Of a stretch of 64,000 bases of DNA, positions 45,579 to 60,873 are shown in pieces. Numbering within the stretch: position 1 is the first letter of the stretch; each line of letters starts with the position of its first letter. A model generated the notes under the pieces. That model was not told the origin of the DNA. It did not search any database and worked only from the letters and a program-made list of their open reading frames with translations. Source of the stretch: Candidatus Bathyarchaeota archaeon (GTDB taxonomy: Archaea > Thermoproteota > Bathyarchaeia > Bathyarchaeales > Bathycorpusculaceae). Position numbers and translations under genes: made by a program. The stretch is taken from assembly GCA_963772455.1 (NCBI GenBank), contig CAVYXJ010000013.1, positions 83,163 through 147,162 of the forward strand, in the 5' to 3' direction.

Positions 45579-46856
45579 GTGCCTGCAGTGAATAGACCTG
45601 ACATTAAAAGATTGCCAAAACGCTCAAACCCAATGGATGCACAAAAGCAACTTCTTGACGCCGTCCACTCAAACTTAAATCCGAGCGAAATGGTGCAGTT
45701 GCAGAAAGCTTTAGGCAGAGTTTTAGCTCAAGATGCTATTTCAACTGTTAACATTCCTAACTACGACAAAACTTTCATTGACGGCTACGCAATCAACTCG
45801 CAAGATACTAAGGCAGCCTCAACTACAAAACCTGCAGCCTTCAAAGTTGTCGGAAAATTATTTCCAGCAGATTACCCAACCGCATTTGAAGCTGCTCATG
45901 GTGAAGCAGTTTATGTTGCATGTGGAGCTCCAATACCCAAAGGTGCGGATTCAACAGTAAAAGTTGAGGAAACAAGGTTAAACGGCGACAAAATCGAAGT
46001 TATTCGCGAAATCACTTCAGGCGAAGGCATAATACCGCTTGGAGACGACATGAAAAAAGGCGATTTAATTCTCAAGAAGGGGCAGGTCCTAAGACCGCAG
46101 GATATTGGGGTATTAGCTTCACTGGGGATGATCATTGCTGAAGTTGCTAAAAAGCCAAAAATCGCCATTATTTCGGGCGGAGACGAACTGATCAAGCAAG
46201 CCAGCAAAGACCCAGCCAAAATCGCCAATAATTATGCCCTTGTTGTTGCTGGTTTGGCTTCCGAATTAGGGGCTGAAGCGGAAATGGTTGGGATAATGGC
46301 CGATGATTTTGAAAAAGTTACTGCAAAAATCGCTGAAGAGATTGCGGATTCAGATATCGTGGTTACAATAGGCGGGACATCAGTTGGGGTGAAAGATTTT
46401 GTTCCTGATGCTGTCAATGCGCTTGGCGATCCTGGAGTGGTTGTTCAAGGTGTTTCGTTAAGGCCAGGTGCAGTTTCAGGCTTCGGAATAGTCTGTGGCA
46501 AGCCGGTGATTATGTTGCCCGGGCATATTGGTTCTTGTATAGCTGGGTTCTACCTTTTTGTCGCGCCCTTAATTAGCCACTACCTCGGGGATAACGGCGA
46601 TGGTGTGCTTCCAAAACTGAGCGCTGAGTTAGCTGAAGATCTGGAGACTGGTCCACAATTTCGATTCCAACTCACCCACCTAAAACAGTTTGAGGGCAAA
46701 CTGTTAGCTGAACAAGTTGAAGGCGGATCAAGCGCATTAACAACTATCGTCAAATCAAACGGTTATACTATAGTGCCGCCGCATACGAGACTCGCGAAAG
46801 GGAGTCGCGTAGAAGTTTACTTATTTGGCAAACTGGAACTTACTCAAATCATTTAA
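45579..46856 (+). CDS. moeA: Molybdopterin molybdenumtransferase
   Basis: ALGRVLAQD, IDGYAI, GGTSVG..DFV, LRPG, LPGH. Confidence 0.88.
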   Translation: MPAVNRPDIKRLPKRSNPMDAQKQLLDAVHSNLNPSEMVQLQKALGRVLAQDAISTVNIPNYDKTFIDGYAINSQDTKAASTTKPAAFKVVGKLFPADYPTAFEAAHGEAVYVACGAPIPKGADSTVKVEETRLNGDKIEVIREITSGEGIIPLGDDMKKGDLILKKGQVLRPQDIGVLASLGMIIAEVAKKPKIAIISGGDELIKQASKDPAKIANNYALVVAGLASELGAEAEMVGIMADDFEKVTAKIAEEIADSDIVVTIGGTSVGVKDFVPDAVNALGDPGVVVQGVSLRPGAVSGFGIVCGKPVIMLPGHIGSCIAGFYLFVAPLISHYLGDNGDGVLPKLSAELAEDLETGPQFRFQLTHLKQFEGKLLAEQVEGGSSALTTIVKSNGYTIVPPHTRLAKGSRVEVYLFGKLELTQII

Positions 46857-47942
46857 GAAACCTTGGGTGGATACCTGTGAACGTGACCGTCTTTTCCCAT
46901 AACCCACGATTCACACCATGCCTTATCAGCGAATGCACGTTCAGCCAGAAGCAGACAACGGTTGCTTTCGAAAATTTTTGACTCGACACGGTAGTTATTT
47001 GCAGCTCGTAGATAAGCTTCTTTTCCTGCAAAATCTAACGTCGCAGCCAGTTCCGATTCCGTTTGTTTTTGTGATAGAGTAAACAAAGCTTCTCCTTGGT
47101 TTTCTTCAGCTACCCCGCTCCAAAAAAACGAATCACAAGCTTCCAAGTCGCTGGCACATTTAGCAAAGGTTTTTTGCGCTTCCAAAAGGTTGTTTTCTTG
47201 GAGCAATTTGGCTCCTTTTCTGAGAAGCTGCAAATCAGAAACCGAAAATACGCCCATGTTTAGGTGTACATTTTCTTTTACTGGTCCATATGAACGGCGG
47301 GTTTGCAGACGAGTTAGGTCTTCTTTTGAGTTTATGTTAATGAAGCTCTTTAGTTCCGGGTCGAGTGCTTTTATTTCGTTTACTGGAGAAATCAGCAAGG
47401 TTTTGCTGGCTCCTCGTGGAATATCATCTGAGCGAGGCCGTTTCAGTTGGCATAGTGTATCCGTGATTTCTAAACTACTTTGGCGTTCCAAGAACCATTA
47501 TAAGGGTTTCAAGTCTGCCGTTAGGCCACATTGGAACAACCACATCAGACTCTTCCGCTTCATTAAACATATATTCAGCAACTTTGGGCTGCAAAAAAGG
47601 CATATCGCAAGGCAAAGTTAAGCAATAATCCGCTTGAACAGCTCTTAAACCTGACATGATTGCCACGTTTGGGCCACTTATGTGGCTAATTTTTTCGTCA
47701 ATAACAATCCTGACGTTTTTAATGGCATATTGTTCTAAAGTTTTAGTATATTTCGCTTTTCGTTCCTCATCGTTTACACACACAACGATTTCATCGACAA
47801 TGTCCTTGACGTTTTCCATAGCGTGGATTAAAAGAGGTTTACCGTTGAGTTCAGCTAGGGCTTTATCTCGCCAGATTGCATCTATTGTTTGGAATCTGCG
47901 AGCTTTTCCCCCTGCCAAAATGAGTGCAGCCCGTTTAGCCAT
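46853..47942 (-). CDS. mobA: Molybdenum cofactor guanylyltransferase with C-terminal extension; +1 frameshift at ~47490
   Basis: ILAGGKARRF..DKAL, PCDMPF; FININSKEDL in the next frame. Confidence 0.8.
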
Positions 47943-47951
47943 CACGTTTCC

Positions 47952-54147: not shown

Positions 54148-55206
54148 TTATTTTTCTTTTTTTGTTTCTTCATGCTCAATGCCCGATTCAGGGTTGGGCG
54201 TTTTAAAGGCGCGGTTCACTGTCATTTCAGCCATGCTAAATGCGCAATGACAGATTCTTTTTATGTCATCACGGGTTGAGCATATGCCGCACACTAAGTC
54301 AGAGCTTTTTGGGGGACCAGTGAAGGATTTTGTGGCTATTTCTACTTCGGCTTTGTCCATTTTTTGGCGGTACTTCATTATTTCAACTGCGGCGTCTATG
54401 TCTTTGGCGAAGAAGGCGGCGATTCCTTTATTGAAAAGATCCAGGACTTCTCTTCCTGTAGTAATCATAATCGCCAACACATTGTCGGGAATCTTTTGTT
54501 TTGCGCCGTTTAGCATAATGATGTGGCGGGAGATGTCGGCTGCATAGTCAGCTGCATATTCCATCCGGTAAACTAGAATTTGATGATCCATACAATCGAG
54601 CGGATCAACATGTAACTCTTTGGCCAGAGTCGGATTTTGGGCTGCGTCGCGCAGGATTCGCAGGATGAAGAATGCAAAATGATCCACGTCTTCGTCGAGA
54701 GTCATGACCGACTTAGCCAGTTCTATATCTCCGGTTTGCAACGCGTTAATAGCGCTTTCAACCATCGACGAGGCGATGAGGTGCATACGTTGTACGGCCT
54801 GCTCTAGGGAAGCCTTCGACTCGTCCATGAGGCTTTGGATGTAAACGCATTTTGAATCTGCTTCCATGACTCTCATGTAGAGCCTTCCAGCCATATGCCG
54901 AATTGCTTTCGTTTGATTTACTGTAAAAATTTTTCCTGAGGTAAGTATTATGCCTGAGTAGCCATTGAGGAAGGCACCCAAGATTTTCTGTTTTATGAGA
55001 AGGTCTTCTTCGTTTTGTCCTATGCTCAAAGTTATTTCTTTGGGCTCGGCTTTTTTGAAGGCTCCGGGGTAAATCACGAGTGAGCGGTCCCGTTGAATGG
55101 TGAATGAGACGGAGTCGCCTTTTTCCAAGTCGTTTAATTGCATCCATTCTGGGGGAAGAGAAATAACTGAAGAGGATTTCCCTAAGGACATGATTTTTCG
55201 TTCCAT
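54148..55206 (-). CDS. AbrB/SpoVT-PhoU phosphate-uptake-regulator-type protein
   Basis: MERKIMSLGKSS..ISLPPEW; LDEDVD, EYAADYAADI PhoU repeats. Confidence 0.85.
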   Translation of the reverse strand: MERKIMSLGKSSSVISLPPEWMQLNDLEKGDSVSFTIQRDRSLVIYPGAFKKAEPKEITLSIGQNEEDLLIKQKILGAFLNGYSGIILTSGKIFTVNQTKAIRHMAGRLYMRVMEADSKCVYIQSLMDESKASLEQAVQRMHLIASSMVESAINALQTGDIELAKSVMTLDEDVDHFAFFILRILRDAAQNPTLAKELHVDPLDCMDHQILVYRMEYAADYAADISRHIIMLNGAKQKIPDNVLAIMITTGREVLDLFNKGIAAFFAKDIDAAVEIMKYRQKMDKAEVEIATKSFTGPPKSSDLVCGICSTRDDIKRICHCAFSMAEMTVNRAFKTPNPESGIEHEETKKEK

Positions 55207-55360
55207 ATGTTTTCCCTGCTTGGCAGTATTAACAGTACATACTCTATTTACTAAATATATATTATACTTGTGAAACCTGTTTGTCAAAGGTATCTTTAAC
55301 AACTGTTTTTCAGCAAATCAATTGCAAGAAAATGCCAGTACCGACTTTCCTCTTAAGGAT

Positions 55361-56380
55361 TTATACCTCGATAACCTTCGCGTTACTAAGCACGTTAACG
55401 TTACCATTGCCCTTTGTGATGTAGCCAACTTCGAAATGCCTGACTTTCCGCTTGTCCAATTCGCTCAATAAATCATCGGCGTCCTCTTTGGCTATGGCTA
55501 TTAGCATTCCACCTGCCGTTTCCTTAGCTTCACCTTGCAACAAGGGGTAACCAAAAATTTCAGTTAAAACGGGCGTGCCACGAATTACCGCCAACTGGTC
55601 AATAACGACGTCCACTTTCCCAAGTCCTGCCATATTGGCAGCGTGCCCTTTCAACCCAAAACCAGTCACGTCTGTCGCGGCGTGAACGGGAACTTTCTGC
55701 ATAGCTTCAGCGACCGGTTTGTTTGAGGTAATCATTACTTCAATAGCTTCAGCGACAGCCTCTTCAATTAACACTTCAGAAACTTCTTTTAGTACTTCTC
55801 TGCCCTCTTCTTCCTTACGCAAACGATAAGCAGCCATCGCAGGCGCAATCCCAAGAGGTTTAGTCAAAAACAAACGGTCACCAACCTGAGCCCCTTTTGT
55901 ATAGACAATTTTCTCAATTTCGCTAACAGCAGTTGCCGCCCCTCCAATAATAGGCCAGGGATTCCTGATTGTATGTCCACCAACAACAGGTGCACCCATT
56001 TCGCGGCAGAAATCTCCAAACCCCTTTAGCATTCCTACTGCCAATTCGTCTGGCATGTTTTCGGGAAACGCCATAATAGACAGAACACTGACAATGTTTG
56101 TGACTGCCAAAGCGTAGATGTCACTTGTCACGTTGCTACCTGCGATTCTACCTTGGATTTCAGGTTCGTCAACCATGGGCGTGAAAAAATCAAGCGTATT
56201 TAGTACGGCAAGGTTGTCTGTGATTTTAACGACGCTGGAGTTTTCCCATGGACCAGCCAATACATCTGAATTAAAACTCTCTGTTAAACCTGCGTTATCG
56301 AGCAATCCGCCGAGTTGATACTGTGGAAGTTTGCAACTGCAACCGTGAACTGGAACAACTTTTGTTAATCTGTAAGTCAA
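55361..56380 (-). CDS. selD: Selenophosphate synthetase (SelD/SelD-like), Cys form
   Basis: HGCSCKL, DFFTPMVD, GGHT, LTKPLG, ATDVTGFGL, ETAGGMLI. Confidence 0.88.
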   Translation of the reverse strand: MTYRLTKVVPVHGCSCKLPQYQLGGLLDNAGLTESFNSDVLAGPWENSSVVKITDNLAVLNTLDFFTPMVDEPEIQGRIAGSNVTSDIYALAVTNIVSVLSIMAFPENMPDELAVGMLKGFGDFCREMGAPVVGGHTIRNPWPIIGGAATAVSEIEKIVYTKGAQVGDRLFLTKPLGIAPAMAAYRLRKEEEGREVLKEVSEVLIEEAVAEAIEVMITSNKPVAEAMQKVPVHAATDVTGFGLKGHAANMAGLGKVDVVIDQLAVIRGTPVLTEIFGYPLLQGEAKETAGGMLIAIAKEDADDLLSELDKRKVRHFEVGYITKGNGNVNVLSNAKVIEV

Positions 56381-56479
56381 ATTTCATTTGCTCCAATTGT
56401 CGATATTATTCCAAATAGCACAGGGATTTATAGGTATAAAAATATTCAAACCAAAAAAAATGGAAAAGAAGAGTTTTGG

Positions 56480-57770
56480 TTACTTTCTTTTTTCTTGGAT
56501 TATTTCAAGGAATGCTTCAATTCTGGTTTTTATCTGCTCGGAATCACCCATTGCATAGTCAGTTTCAATCTTTAGCATCGGCAAACTTATCGCCTTTAAT
56601 GCACGGTCTACTTTGACGCCTTCAACGTTGTAGTCGTGGCAGTTCTGCAACGTGTAATAGATTACGCCTTCTGCTTTGAATTGCTTAGCCAGCTCTATTA
56701 CACTTTTTATGCGTGCATCGTTGGGTGTGAAGCATGCACAGGGTATCTGGCTGTATTTTTCAACCATAGCCCAGAGCAAATCGTTTAAGCTGTCACCTTT
56801 CGGTTCAACCAAGTTAGTAAAGTAACGTGTGCCTACGCAACTCTCCTCAACAATCACTGAAGCACCAGCCGCTTGAGCGATGCTGTGGACTTTCCAATTG
56901 GGAATCGCCATAGGGCAGCCAGAAATCATAACTCTTGGCGCATCTTTCGCTGTGACACCTATGCCTTTGTGTACCCGTTCGTCAAGTTCGTCGCAGAGTT
57001 CGTTGACTTTTGTGGTGAAGCGTTTTACGTCGTCGTTGAAGCTGATTTGGAAAATCAGTAACGCATCTAATCCGCTGATGGGCGATGGGTTGTTGGCGCG
57101 CAAGTCGGATAAACGTTTGAGGGCTTTTCGTTTGTTGTTGATTAATTCGATGGATTCTTTTAGTTTTTCGGCGGTTATTTTGTTGCCTGTAACTTCTTCA
57201 AGTTTGGTTTTGAATGCTTCAAGTTCTTTGTACCAGAATTCTTTGCCTTGTCGTGTATCTGGTTTATGAGGAACCTCTAAAACATAGGTTGGAATAAGTT
57301 CGTTTAGTAGTTCGTAAACTTTCTTTTTGCCATCGCAGGTTGTTTCTCCAACCACAAGGTCGCTTGACTGAAAGTAGGGGCAAGTTTTGTTTAGTCTAAA
57401 GCCGTAGAACGATTTTATCAAGGGGCAGAGGTTTCTTGGCAAAATTGCTTCTGCGTCTGGAACTGAGAAGTCTGCTCCACCGCACAACCCAACCATGGTT
57501 GCGTCTGCCGCGTAAGCTAGTCTCTTCTGGCGCGTAAATGCAGAATGCACCAATGACTTTTTTGCCTTTTGCTCTGAGGTCGTTGAGTTCTTTGATTCGT
57601 AACCCGTGGATTTCTGAGACGACAAAGTCGAAGTAACCCATTCCTTTAGGTCGGTTCTTCTGTGTTAGGTATAAGGCTCCGTAGTATTGTCCTAAGATGC
57701 CAAGGAGTTGGTTATGTTTTTCAATATCCATTCCGAGAGATTTCCACATTTCTACATATTTTTCTGCCAT
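56480..57770 (-). CDS. Double-cubane-cluster protein (DCCP, 2-hydroxyacyl-CoA dehydratase superfamily); +1 frameshift at ~57521
   Basis: EIHGLRIKEL, FCIYAPEE, GLCGG, NLCPLIKS, ETTCDGKKK, SGCP, EESCVG, PCACF, QNCH. Confidence 0.8.
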
Positions 57771-57854
57771 AGCAATCACATGCCAATGATGAGCGTATTG
57801 AAAATTCTAATTATTAAAATTATTGATAAATATTATTAGAAATATTGATTGAGG

Positions 57855-58089
57855 CTAGCGTTTTTTAACTAAAACCTTAAACTCAGCGGCAGACTTCGAA
57901 TGCTTCAACCACTTCATGACCATTATTCTTAACCCAACGCTGAATGTTATCAAACTCCAACTCACCCTCACCAACAACCTCCAACAACTGTCCAGCAACC
58001 ATCGTCTCAAGCTTACGCTTCGTAAACACCACTGGCATGGGACACATTTTGCCCTTAACATCCAACTTTTCAATTTCCAAAAACGTCAC
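57855..58089 (-). CDS. tusA: TusA/SirA-family sulfur carrier; +1 frameshift at ~57900
   Basis: LDVKGKMCPMPVV (CPxP), DNIQRWVKNNGH. Confidence 0.85.
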
Positions 58090-58439
58090 TAGAACACTAT
58101 TACTTTGTCACTATTAACTGTCCATTCAACGAGTTCATGAACAGTCGCGATTTTTACCCCGTCGAAGAGGTCGGCTTGATTTAAGCCACGTGCTTCAACG
58201 CAGACCACGCAGGCTTTAACTTCGACACCGCCTTGAATGAGATTTTCAAGATTTTGGCCGTAGTTGATTAAGCCTTGAGCGGGTTTTTGACCTTTTTTTG
58301 CGAGGTAGACACCGTTTTCGAACAGCCAGATTTTTACTTTGTGGCCTTCTATGTCGCAGGTTGCGGCGAATCGTAGAGCTGACATTGCGCGTTCTTTTGC
58401 GTATGGGGCTTCGTTTATTATTATTGTGAAGGTGACCAT
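58089..58439 (-). CDS. DsrE-family sulfur relay protein
   Basis: NEAPY..ALRFA, LFENGVY, ACVVCVEARG, SDKVIVF. Confidence 0.85.
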   Translation of the reverse strand: MVTFTIIINEAPYAKERAMSALRFAATCDIEGHKVKIWLFENGVYLAKKGQKPAQGLINYGQNLENLIQGGVEVKACVVCVEARGLNQADLFDGVKIATVHELVEWTVNSDKVIVF

Positions 58440-58559
58440 ATCATCCAACCTTAATTTTCCTGATAGAGAATTATTAAAAAAACTAATATAAGCATTTTCT
58501 AAAACAAAAAGCAAATATCACAACAACCTCTAAGAAGCTTACACAGAGGCACAAAATTC

Positions 58560-59494
58560 GTGGACACCATAAGGTTCGATTACCTCAACACCTTCCTCAC
58601 AGTTGCCAGAACACGCAGCTTCTCAGTGGCAGCTAAAGAACTTAAAACCAGCCAAGGCACAGTAAGCCACCATGTAGCCGCATTAGAAGAGTATTTTGAC
58701 GCTGAACTCTTCAAACGCACAGCAAATGGCGTAGAAGTTACCGAAGCCGGAGCCACCCTAAAAGAAACCGCGGAAAAAATACTTCAGCAAGCCCAAGATG
58801 CAAAAACCAAAATCTCCATGGCAAAACATAATTTGTCAGGTACTATAAGAATTGCTGCAAGCACCATCCCAGAAGAACATATAATCCCAAGTTTAACCGC
58901 TGAATTCCAAAAAAAATATCCAGACGTAAAATTCAGGATAAAAGCAGAAGATAGCCTAAACAGCCTAAGAAGCCTACAAGCTAACGACGCTGATTTTGCG
59001 GCTGTGGGTACAATTTGGGGTTTTGAAGAAAAATTCAGTTATCTCCAGATTGGTGAAGAGCAATTGGTTCTCATTGTGCCTTGTAACCACCAGTTAGCCA
59101 AACATAAAATTGTCAATCTAAACACGATCTTAACTTTCCCATTCGTAAGTCGTGAAGAAACTTCTGGAACAAGACTGGAAATCGAGCAGTTTACTGGAAC
59201 AAAACAATCTCCATTCCCAGCAGTTGCGGGTGACGTTGGAGCTTGGAAGCACAGAATCAGTAATAACAGCTGTTTCAGAAGGCAGAGGCATAAGCATAAT
59301 CTCCTCAATCGCCGCAACAAAAGCCCAAGCAGCAGGTTTGGCTGAAAATAGTTGCAATTGAAGAAGCAAAAAACTGTCGAAAACTCTACATCGTCAGACC
59401 AAAAAAGTCTCTTCTAAAGACATCTGAGGCTTTCTGGGAATTCTGCAAAAAATACAAATTCAAAAACGAAGCAATTACCTGCTCTTCAACTTAA
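58560..59494 (+). CDS. LysR-family regulator; +1 frameshifts at ~59191 and ~59340
   Basis: SFSVAAKEL..SQGTVSHHV..LEEYF..LFKR; AASTIP; REETSGTR; GSTESV..AVSEG. Confidence 0.85.
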
Positions 59495-59501
59495 AACTAT
59501 T

Positions 59502-59825
59502 TTACTCTTCGTCAAGTTTAACCCAGATTTTTCCCGATTCAACCTTCCACTTAAACATGACTAGCTTCATTGACGGTGCGTCTTCGTACTCTCCAGTTTC
59601 CAAGCTGAAGCGCCAATCATGGCAAGGACAAATAATTACCAATCCATCAAGAGATCCGCCTAAAAAGCCACATGCCATATGGGGACAACGGTTATCGATA
59701 ACAAAAATTTTTCCTTGTTGCTTAATGAACAAAAGTGGTATACCCTCAAAAGGTACAAGCTTCATTTTACCTTCTTCCAATTCATTTTCATCTAAAACAG
59801 GTACAAATTCTTCTTGATTATCCAT
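59502..59825 (-). CDS. Rieske [2Fe-2S] ferredoxin
   Basis: RCPHMAC..ICPCHDWRF. Confidence 0.9.
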   Translation of the reverse strand: MDNQEEFVPVLDENELEEGKMKLVPFEGIPLLFIKQQGKIFVIDNRCPHMACGFLGGSLDGLVIICPCHDWRFSLETGEYEDAPSMKLVMFKWKVESGKIWVKLDEE

Positions 59826-60031
59826 TTCTATTTTCTCCTAAACGATGCCTAATTTCCAATATGTATTTGGCGTTGGTATTATTTTAGGAGAACTGCTAAG
59901 TTACTGATAATTGGAAAGCAAGAATATAGCTCTCCAACAACCACAACAACCAAACAAAAATAGCTAAACTCAAAAACCAAAAAATATACATAAACAAACT
60001 TAATTGGTTGAACACTCTACATTTTAAAACA

Positions 60032-60873
60032 ATGTTCCAAATCAAATTAATGCGCCCTAAAGATTTCGTTTTTGCTGCAGAATTAGCGAATACTATGAAT
60101 TGGAATATGGCAATCGAAGATTTTCAATTCTTGACTTATCTTGAACCAGGCGGCTGTTTTGTCCTTTTTGATGATTCGCAACCCATTGGCATTGCCACAT
60201 GCAATAGTTATGGCAAAGTCGGTTGGTTTGGGAATCTCATAGTCAAAGAAGAATATCGAAGCAAAGGCGCTGGAAGCCAACTTGTGAAACACGCAATCGA
60301 CTATTTACATGGCAAAGGTGTTGAAACCATCGGATTATACGCTTACCCAAACCTCGTTCAATTCTACAGTAACTTGGGCTTTCGATATGATGAAGATTTT
60401 TCTGTACTACATGCACCAGCTCTCAAAGTCAATGTCCGCTGAAGCTCTGTCCAGCGATAGGAGCTAAAAATATCCAGCAAATAGCGCGGTTTGACTGTAG
60501 ATGCTTCGGTGGTGATAGAAGAAAACTTCTTGAATCAATCATCCTTGAACAAGGCAACTTGAGCTATTACGTTTCTAAGGATGCCGAGATAACTGGATAC
60601 GTGGCCGCTACAGTTTACGGGACAATGGCTTGGGTTGGACCCTTGGTGTGCCAAGAAGGCAGCGTTGACGCCGTTATTACGCTGATTAAAGCGGTTCTAA
60701 GCAAGTTAACTGGTTTGAGTGTTTACGTAGCATTGCCTAAAAAAGAGATTACTATCATATCCACTCTTTCTTTGGCAGGCTTTAAAGAAGATTTTTCTGT
60801 TGCAAGAATGTTTTTAGGACCAAGTATCGCAAAAAATTGTATATACTTGGCTGAATCTCTAGAACGAGGATAA
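60032..60873 (+). CDS. GNAT acetyltransferase with second degenerate GNAT-like domain; +1 frameshifts at ~60426 and ~60450
   Basis: GWFGNLIVKEEYRSKGAG..YSNLGF; DCRCFGGDRRKLL; WVGPLV. Confidence 0.8.

Follow-up and report, generated by a model that had tools for sequence, protein, structure and literature searches.

A reduced selenium-associated DsrE-TusA-SelD cluster with an accessory double-cubane protein in a Bathyarchaeia archaeon without identifiable selenocysteine machinery

The gene cluster described here lies in a 64,000-nucleotide stretch of contig CAVYXJ010000013.1 (the window), which belongs to a metagenome-assembled genome (MAG) of a soil or peat archaeon in the class Bathyarchaeia. 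This genome has a completeness of 92%, and the nearest public contigs are those of other Bathyarchaeia MAGs, many of which come out of one long-read soil survey. Four genes on the minus strand, dsrE, tusA, the gene of a double-cubane-cluster protein (DCCP; the copy in this cluster is referred to as DCCP-A) and selD, are divergent from a lysR gene on the plus strand. This layout had been proposed in an initial annotation made from the sequence alone, and the listing of open reading frames (ORFs) together with hidden Markov model scans confirmed it in coordinates and strands:

55361-56380, minus strand: selD; NF010705, 332 bits (cut-off 291)
56480-57770, minus strand: gene of DCCP-A; NF040772, 457 bits on the C-terminal part; PF06050, E = 9e-119
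57855-58089, minus strand: tusA-like (YedF-like) carrier gene; PF01206, E = 2e-16
58089-58439, minus strand: dsrE-family gene of the YchN type; PF02635, 79.6 bits
58440-58559, no strand: putative divergent promoter region with conserved blocks in 22 aligned orthologous intergenic regions
58560-59494, plus strand: lysR, probably of the LysR_Se/HrsM type; best family NF040786, 'selenium metabolism-associated LysR'

The same order, in which the gene of a small Rieske protein is followed by lysR and the divergent dsrE-tusA-DCCP-selD genes, recurs on about 45 independent Bathyarchaeia contigs with DCCP identities of 76-100%. Such an arrangement is far beyond chance, and the claim that the cluster is conserved is upheld. 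All five genes are under purifying selection; within the genus dN/dS is 0.057 for SelD, 0.072 for DCCP, 0.079 for DsrE, 0.102 for LysR and 0.118 for TusA, values that are rough in that dS is near saturation. Two clusters of the Bathyarchaeia type, with DCCP identities of 82-84%, have been deposited under other names, one as Methanocella sp. (L068) and one as a Limnocylindrales bacterium (L075), probably through errors in binning or labelling.

Among 46 genomes of the genus, for which all counts are descriptive only because the genomes are related, SelD was found in 32. Of the 46, 18 carry an orthologue of DCCP-A (identity of 70% or more); all 18 are SelD-positive, with every copy abutting selD, and the orthologue is absent from all 14 SelD-negative genomes. 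A further set of 14 genomes, out of the 32 with SelD, has no DCCP-A. Clusters without DCCP occur as lysR divergent from dsrE-tusA-selD (G012, G023, G004, G009 and G217), as Rieske-dsrE-tusA-selD (G013 and G019) and as dsrE-tusA-selD (G006). The invariant core of the cluster is DsrE-TusA-SelD, and DCCP-A is an accessory add-on that depends on SelD. The view of DCCP as the centre of the module, taken in the initial annotation, did not hold, since 14 of the 32 SelD-positive genomes keep DsrE-TusA-SelD without it, and the module genes therefore do not serve DCCP maturation solely.

SelD is a selenide, water dikinase of 339 amino acids and the only true SelD of the genome. It scores 238 bits on TIGR00476 (cut-off 125), contains both AIRS domains (PF00586 and PF02769) and aligns over its full length with human SPS1 (3FD5/9HJT). 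The first cysteine of its N-terminal motif HGCSCK falls at the position that is occupied by Sec (selenocysteine), Cys or Thr, and the lysine of the motif is kept, so that the enzyme is of the Cys type as had been claimed. In SelD orthologues from a sister genus, the codon of that catalytic cysteine is TGA (HG*SCK).

The known destinations of selenophosphate were not recovered from the window's genome. No tRNA-Sec scored above the gathering score in this 92% complete genome, in which the best match (40.8 bits) is a tRNA-Ser; neither SepSecS nor SelA was found in it; SelU, YqeB and YqeC gave no match at E <= 0.001; and a search of the same genome for YedE was also negative. The co-occurrence comparison with selA, selU and yqeBC proposed in the initial annotation thus gives SelD in a genome in which none of their products was found. 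Across the genus, tRNA-Sec is present above the gathering score in 1 of the 46 genomes, G395 (65.8 bits), where a Cys-type SelD nevertheless lies beside DCCP-A; this lineage may be midway through the loss of Sec. The absence of Sec, selenouridine and YqeB/C genes, the near-absence of tRNA-Sec and the purifying selection on the cluster bear out the suggestion that this archaeon has a non-Sec trait associated with selenium. A literature search for Bathyarchaeia together with SelD returned nothing relevant.

The sister genus has a larger version of the locus. In G247 and G259 it comprises a split YedE, TusA, DUF3343 (PF11823), a Carb_kinase-like protein, DsrE, TusA, DCCP, an activase (TIGR00241, 289 bits) and a UGA-containing SelD, with a divergent LysR that adjoins SepSecS. 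Both genomes, and two other Bathyarchaeia with a UGA-containing SelD, have a tRNA-Sec above the gathering score, and SepSecS is present in all five Bathyarchaeia genomes with such a SelD. In a more distant Bathyarchaeia family (G136), SelD with Sec, DCCP and an activase are found in another order beside PSTK-aSelB, SepSecS and tRNA-Sec. On comparison of these gene contents, the cluster in the window is clearly derived from a Sec-decoding ancestor and appears to be a pared-down selenium island whose SelD is an orphan.

Two features of the larger islands are recorded here in their own right. In G136 and G075 a PSTK-like kinase domain (KTI12), GTP_EFTU and aSelB_III are found in single ORFs (L159:8200-10389, 729 amino acids, and L160:8735-10912, 725 amino acids, respectively) that adjoin SepSecS and tRNA-Sec, and judged by their domains these appear to be PSTK-SelB fusions of Bathyarchaeia that decode Sec. 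The Carb_kinase-like protein (PF01256, a weak match; 319-339 amino acids) lies inside the selenium island both in an archaeon (L157:11173-12192, G247) and in a deltaproteobacterium (L107:1558-2517), and is absent from the window's genome.

DCCP-A, of about 429 amino acids, is a canonical double-cubane-cluster protein. It exceeds the 350-bit cut-off of NF040772 both as the fragment encoded in the window (457 bits) and as the intact orthologue of the closest sibling genome, G002 (500.3 bits), and it matches the DCCP of Carboxydothermus hydrogenoformans (6ENO/7YYL) over its full length with E = 4e-152. The seven-cysteine cluster-binding motif is intact from C77 to C377 (by regular-expression match), and each of its cysteines is invariant in 36 of 36 orthologues from the genus and has its counterpart in the alignment with 7YYL. 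From this we predict that DCCP-A carries an [8Fe-9S] cluster and has reductase activity. In the DCCP tree, both Bathyarchaeia genera fall into a single clade (support 99/98), the sister of activase-linked DCCPs of Nitrososphaerota. Adjacency to SelD requires at least five independent changes on this tree, in which row L088 is labelled SelD-adjacent by identity alone and has no SelD within 6 kb.

The reductase of C. hydrogenoformans, DCCP-R, is ATP-dependent, and the initial annotation had described the present cluster as lacking an ATPase activator. Locally this is correct, as no activase of the BcrAD_BadFG type was found in the window. It is not correct for the genome as a whole, whose only two such genes are on another contig (C11), where a second, DCCP-like gene, that of DCCP-B, is followed by those of ActA and ActB (C11:60576-63620; locus L056:5589-8620). 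DCCP-B shares 38% identity with DCCP-A, reaches 340.8 bits on NF040772, slightly under the cut-off, and is missing the second cysteine of the motif; ActA is BcrD-like and ActB is BzdQ-like (360 bits). The DCCP-B-ActA-ActB operon was found at all 21 DCCP-B loci examined, irrespective of SelD or DCCP-A, and ActA/ActB-like genes are present in 43 of the 46 genomes of the genus. We considered whether ActB could be the cognate activase of DCCP-A, moved to another place, and rejected this because the operon is there with or without DCCP-A or SelD. In the sister genus the activase lies between DCCP and SelD, and its orthologue was absent from all 46 genomes searched. The closest outgroup DCCPs (from Nitrososphaerota, Jordarchaeia, Thermodesulfobacteriota and Actinomycetota) are nearly all followed by a single activase gene. 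Since both the outgroups and the sister genus have an adjoining activase, the activator-less state of the cluster is, by this comparison, a derived local loss.

The two putative carriers are encoded by overlapping genes, the stop codon of dsrE overlapping the start of tusA by 1 nt. The TusA-like protein has about 75 amino acids, its true C-terminus being taken from the intact 75-amino-acid orthologue in G002, and carries the cysteine motif CPMP. Its best NCBIfam matches are both YedF models, TIGR03527 (46.7 bits against a cut-off of 79) and PRK11018 (36 bits against 110). The DsrE protein (116 amino acids) has a CxxC motif whose first cysteine falls in the column of Cys78 of DsrE/TusD in the alignment with 2HY5 and 2D1P. 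Among solved structures it comes nearest to E. coli YchN (1JX7, E = 7e-17), whose CxxC it has kept. The possibility that it is the C-terminal domain of YedF was rejected, as it has no match to TIGR03527 and YchN is the nearest structure. In bacteria, a fused YedF (TusA+DsrE) is found at loci of related content. One deltaproteobacterial contig (L107) holds the Carb_kinase-like protein, SelD, YedF, YedE, TusA and DCCP, and another bacterial contig (L132) holds DCCP, SelD and YedF. The fusion lends support to the view that DsrE and TusA, encoded separately in the window, are interacting partners, and the pair is a functional analogue of YedF that, as two separate genes, stands outside the YedF family.

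The regulator has about 310 amino acids. Its first fragment in the window scores 178 bits on NF040786, and the intact orthologue in G002 scores 254.4 bits, barely over the 250-bit cut-off. When the 22 orthologous intergenic regions were aligned, two elements upstream of the dsrE ATG proved to be conserved within otherwise variable sequence, a TATA-like box on the minus strand (58485-58490) and a LysR-type dyad, TTA-N7-TAA (58474-58486). Both may have a promoter function.

We propose that the cluster is a module for the acquisition and activation of selenium, a reading to which we assign roughly even odds (a probability of about 0.5). The regulator, probably of the LysR_Se/HrsM type, would control the divergent operon, and the YchN-type DsrE together with the YedF-like TusA would be the split counterpart of bacterial YedF, carrying selenium as a cysteine perselenide and passing it to the catalytic cysteine of SelD, which would then produce selenophosphate. 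As a low-potential, ATP-dependent reductase, DCCP-A would most likely act as an optional member on the supply side, where it would provide SelD with selenide or perselenide by reducing a selenium species of poor availability, and it could be energised in trans by the ActA and ActB encoded with DCCP-B. A supply-side DCCP is the more economical assumption because the remaining genes of the island, YedE, YedF and DUF3343, seem to serve in uptake and delivery. In a genus without the machinery for Sec, selenouridine or YqeB/C, the selenophosphate must feed some other use.

Several observations weigh against this proposal. TusA is under the YedF cut-offs and DsrE is under the TusD equivalog cut-off, so that it is their context that suggests a selenium role for the two carriers. 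None of the known selenophosphate consumers (the Sec, selenouridine and YqeB/C machineries) was found in the window's genome, and three of the five genes of the cluster have interrupted frames in the window. ActA and ActB share just 37-46% identity with the cognate activase that was lost, as represented in the sister genus, and they resemble a heterodimer of the BzdQ/BcrD type that would serve DCCP-B exclusively. In addition, the restriction of DCCP-A to SelD-positive genomes is an equally good fit to a DCCP that consumes selenophosphate.

In that alternative, selenophosphate from SelD, with the DsrE/TusA carriers, would be used to give DCCP-A a counterpart of the [8Fe-9S] double cubane with a selenium bridge, constituting a Sec-independent selenium trait. 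The phyletic pattern is what such a trait would give, as all 18 copies of DCCP-A adjoin SelD and none is found in the 14 SelD-negative genomes. DCCP is also found beside SelD in several unrelated lineages, 955 of 970 bacterial DCCPs are in SelD-positive genomes (Haft & Gwadz, bioRxiv 10.1101/2022.07.06.499078), and SelD is kept and constrained in a genus without Sec. However, the 14 SelD-positive genomes without DCCP-A keep SelD, DsrE and TusA intact and would need another consumer of selenophosphate anyway, DCCP-B occurs in SelD-negative genomes, and the look of YedE, YedF and DUF3343 as uptake and delivery functions favours the supply side. A cysteine or other residue signature unique to SelD-linked DCCPs was looked for, and none was found that sets them apart. 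The bridge in the solved C. hydrogenoformans DCCP (6ENO) is sulfur. Taken together, we regard a selenium-bridged DCCP-A as rather unlikely. The SelD-dependent uses of selenium established in prokaryotes are selenocysteine, selenouridine and the YqeB/C-linked cofactor, with selenoneine as a later addition. The broader idea that SelD has been retained because its product feeds a fourth selenium trait, be it, in the most specific form of the idea, a selenium-containing double cubane in DCCP-A (optionally also in DCCP-B) or another metallo-cofactor such as that of Mo/W enzymes, is in our estimate similarly doubtful.

A different explanation is that the cluster is a decaying relic of the lost Sec system, with real frameshifts that have turned DCCP, tusA and lysR into pseudogenes. 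DNA alignment with four relatives places single-base insertions in DCCP at 57522, in tusA at about 57900, where the frame of the C-terminus is shifted, and in lysR at 59188 and 59342, so that lysR is readable across three frames. These four insertions within about 4.1 kb compare with about 0.74 expected from the genome-wide rate (Poisson P = 0.04 for at least three and 0.007 for at least four), an excess that, like the loss of the Sec machinery from the genome, would be in keeping with decay. So would the broken copies in two sibling genomes: the cluster in G011 (G011:C3:58807-61050, L023) is badly damaged, with 13-14 stop codons each in DCCP and SelD, and that in G016 (C7, L022) has frameshifts in DsrE, DCCP and SelD, although these copies could be either the result of real decay or very noisy contigs. 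Against this, when 130 orthologous ORFs from 400 kb of G002 were compared with the window's genome (G000), 19 of them showed a frame change (about 0.18 events per kb), and 19 of the 21 shift events were +1 insertions, a bias typical of a consensus artefact and not of decay. Two further genes in the window (46853-47945 on the minus strand and 60008-60873 on the plus strand) are split in the same manner. No stop codons or deletions have accumulated in the cluster genes of the window, DCCP and SelD are 88-96% and 90% identical, respectively, to those of G002, the sibling-species orthologues of the broken genes are intact in many cases, and genus-wide dN/dS lies at 0.06-0.12. Because of the uniform +1 signature, the lack of stops and deletions and the many intact orthologues, the four insertions are almost certainly assembly errors, namely consensus errors in a long-read MAG, and we consider decay of the cluster quite improbable. 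Three of the insertions precede Leu CTN codons, which was the basis for considering programmed frameshifting or quadruplet decoding at 'N-CTN' sites; this was rejected because the relatives are without the extra base and the +1 bias is assembly-wide. For annotators, the systematic +1 insertion errors in this MAG mean that gene calls are fragmented throughout.

A module for sulfur instead of selenium, in which DsrE and TusA would form a persulfide relay, the SelD homologue would activate sulfide and DCCP would reduce a sulfur compound, is very improbable, for although DsrE and TusA are classical sulfur-relay families, archaea have a known SelD-like family that serves sulfur metabolism (PMC4210487) and the known selenium consumers were not found in the window's genome, the SelD of the window is over the SelD equivalog cut-off and reaches just 38 bits on the sulfur-type SelD-like model NF038049 (cut-off 250), its sister-genus orthologues are selenoproteins encoded beside SepSecS in genomes with tRNA-Sec, the regulator has the selenium-associated LysR family as its best match, and the homologous bacterial loci hold YedE and YedF.

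The proposed selenium module can be compared with several systems described previously. Lin et al. (2015; PMC5322559) defined YedE, YedF, DUF3343 and LysR_Se as selenium-linked, with STRING neighbours that include HgdB-like and activase genes, described a diagnostic proline for the selenium-associated LysR, and reported YedF to be absent from archaea. The present cluster resembles that neighbourhood in having a LysR whose best-scoring NCBIfam family is the same, SelD, TusA and DsrE as the two domains of YedF, and an HgdB-family protein (DCCP); the full set, including the split YedE and DUF3343, is found in the sister genus, and the same set in the deltaproteobacterial locus. It differs in that YedF is split, with the reverse order of DsrE then TusA and a DsrE part that is YchN-like and not like the C-terminal part of YedF, in that YedE, DUF3343 and the activase are missing, and in that the host is without the Sec, selenouridine and YqeB/C traits. 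With the C. hydrogenoformans DCCP/DCCP-R system (6ENO, 7YYL) it shares a DCCP that matches over the full length, has the seven-cysteine motif and scores 457-500 bits on NF040772; in contrast to that system, no ATP-dependent reductase adjoins, and the DCCP gene lies in an operon between tusA and selD.

The correlation of DCCP with SelD, and a selenium-bridged cluster as a 'formal possibility', are already explicit in section 24 of Haft & Gwadz. The initial annotation's idea of a selenium bridge or a DCCP-selenium link is thus not new, while its view of the cluster as selenium-associated stands. As Haft & Gwadz predict, the DCCP of the window is in a SelD-containing genome, but their archaeal examples are SelD-less methanogens, whereas the present host is a Sec-less archaeon with SelD.

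For the regulator, the closest precedent is HrsM, the LysR-type selenium regulator of Methanococcus, and in M. maripaludis the TusA/TusD transcripts rise 4.5 log2-fold on selenium depletion (PMC11097638). These are archaeal cases of a LysR-type selenium regulator and of a TusA/DsrE-family pair tied to selenium, as suggested here. HrsM, however, steers the switching between Sec and Cys isoenzymes in a Sec-decoding methanogen, whereas no Sec system was found in the present host, and the comparison is one at the level of families. Finally, organisms with an orphan SelD (Haft & Self 2008; Zhang 2008; Peng 2016) also have SelD without Sec or selenouridine machinery. The classical orphans, unlike this one, are explained by YqeB/YqeC and selenium-dependent molybdenum hydroxylases, which were not found in the window's genome, and the neighbours listed for 26 bacterial SelD orphans differ from the DsrE, TusA and DCCP seen here.

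Two genes flank the cluster in the window:

59502-59825, minus strand: gene of a small soluble Rieske [2Fe-2S] protein, 107 amino acids; PF00355, E = 4e-18
54148-55302, minus strand: gene of an AbrB/MazE-PhoU regulator, 58 bp downstream of selD and co-directional with it

At most loci of the genus the Rieske gene adjoins the module. In G013 and G019, two genomes whose clusters have no lysR, it is co-directional with dsrE and immediately upstream of it, so that it may be a member of the operon in these two genomes and is a possible part of the module. The AbrB/MazE-PhoU gene is syntenic at many loci, yet its distribution in the genus does not follow that of SelD; it was rejected as a module member, as it occurs in 4 of the 14 SelD-negative genomes and is missing from many SelD-positive ones.

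The two Bathyarchaeia genera amount to a natural experiment, in which the sister genus, a Sec decoder, has the full island with DCCP and activase, and the present genus has lost Sec and exchanged the Sec of SelD for Cys but keeps SelD, the carriers and the regulator. What is new is the archaeal, Sec-less and activator-less variant with a split YedF, its evident derivation from a Sec-decoding island, and the strict dependence of DCCP-A on an adjoining SelD. This provides independent archaeal support for the link between DCCP and selenium that Haft & Gwadz had put forward on the strength of bacterial data, and the minimal four-gene set of DsrE, TusA, DCCP and SelD is fit for reconstitution, which makes the selenium role of DCCP directly testable. 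The link between the reductase and selenium has itself been published already; an orphan SelD operon under strong selection in a Sec-less archaeon hints at a further use of selenium.

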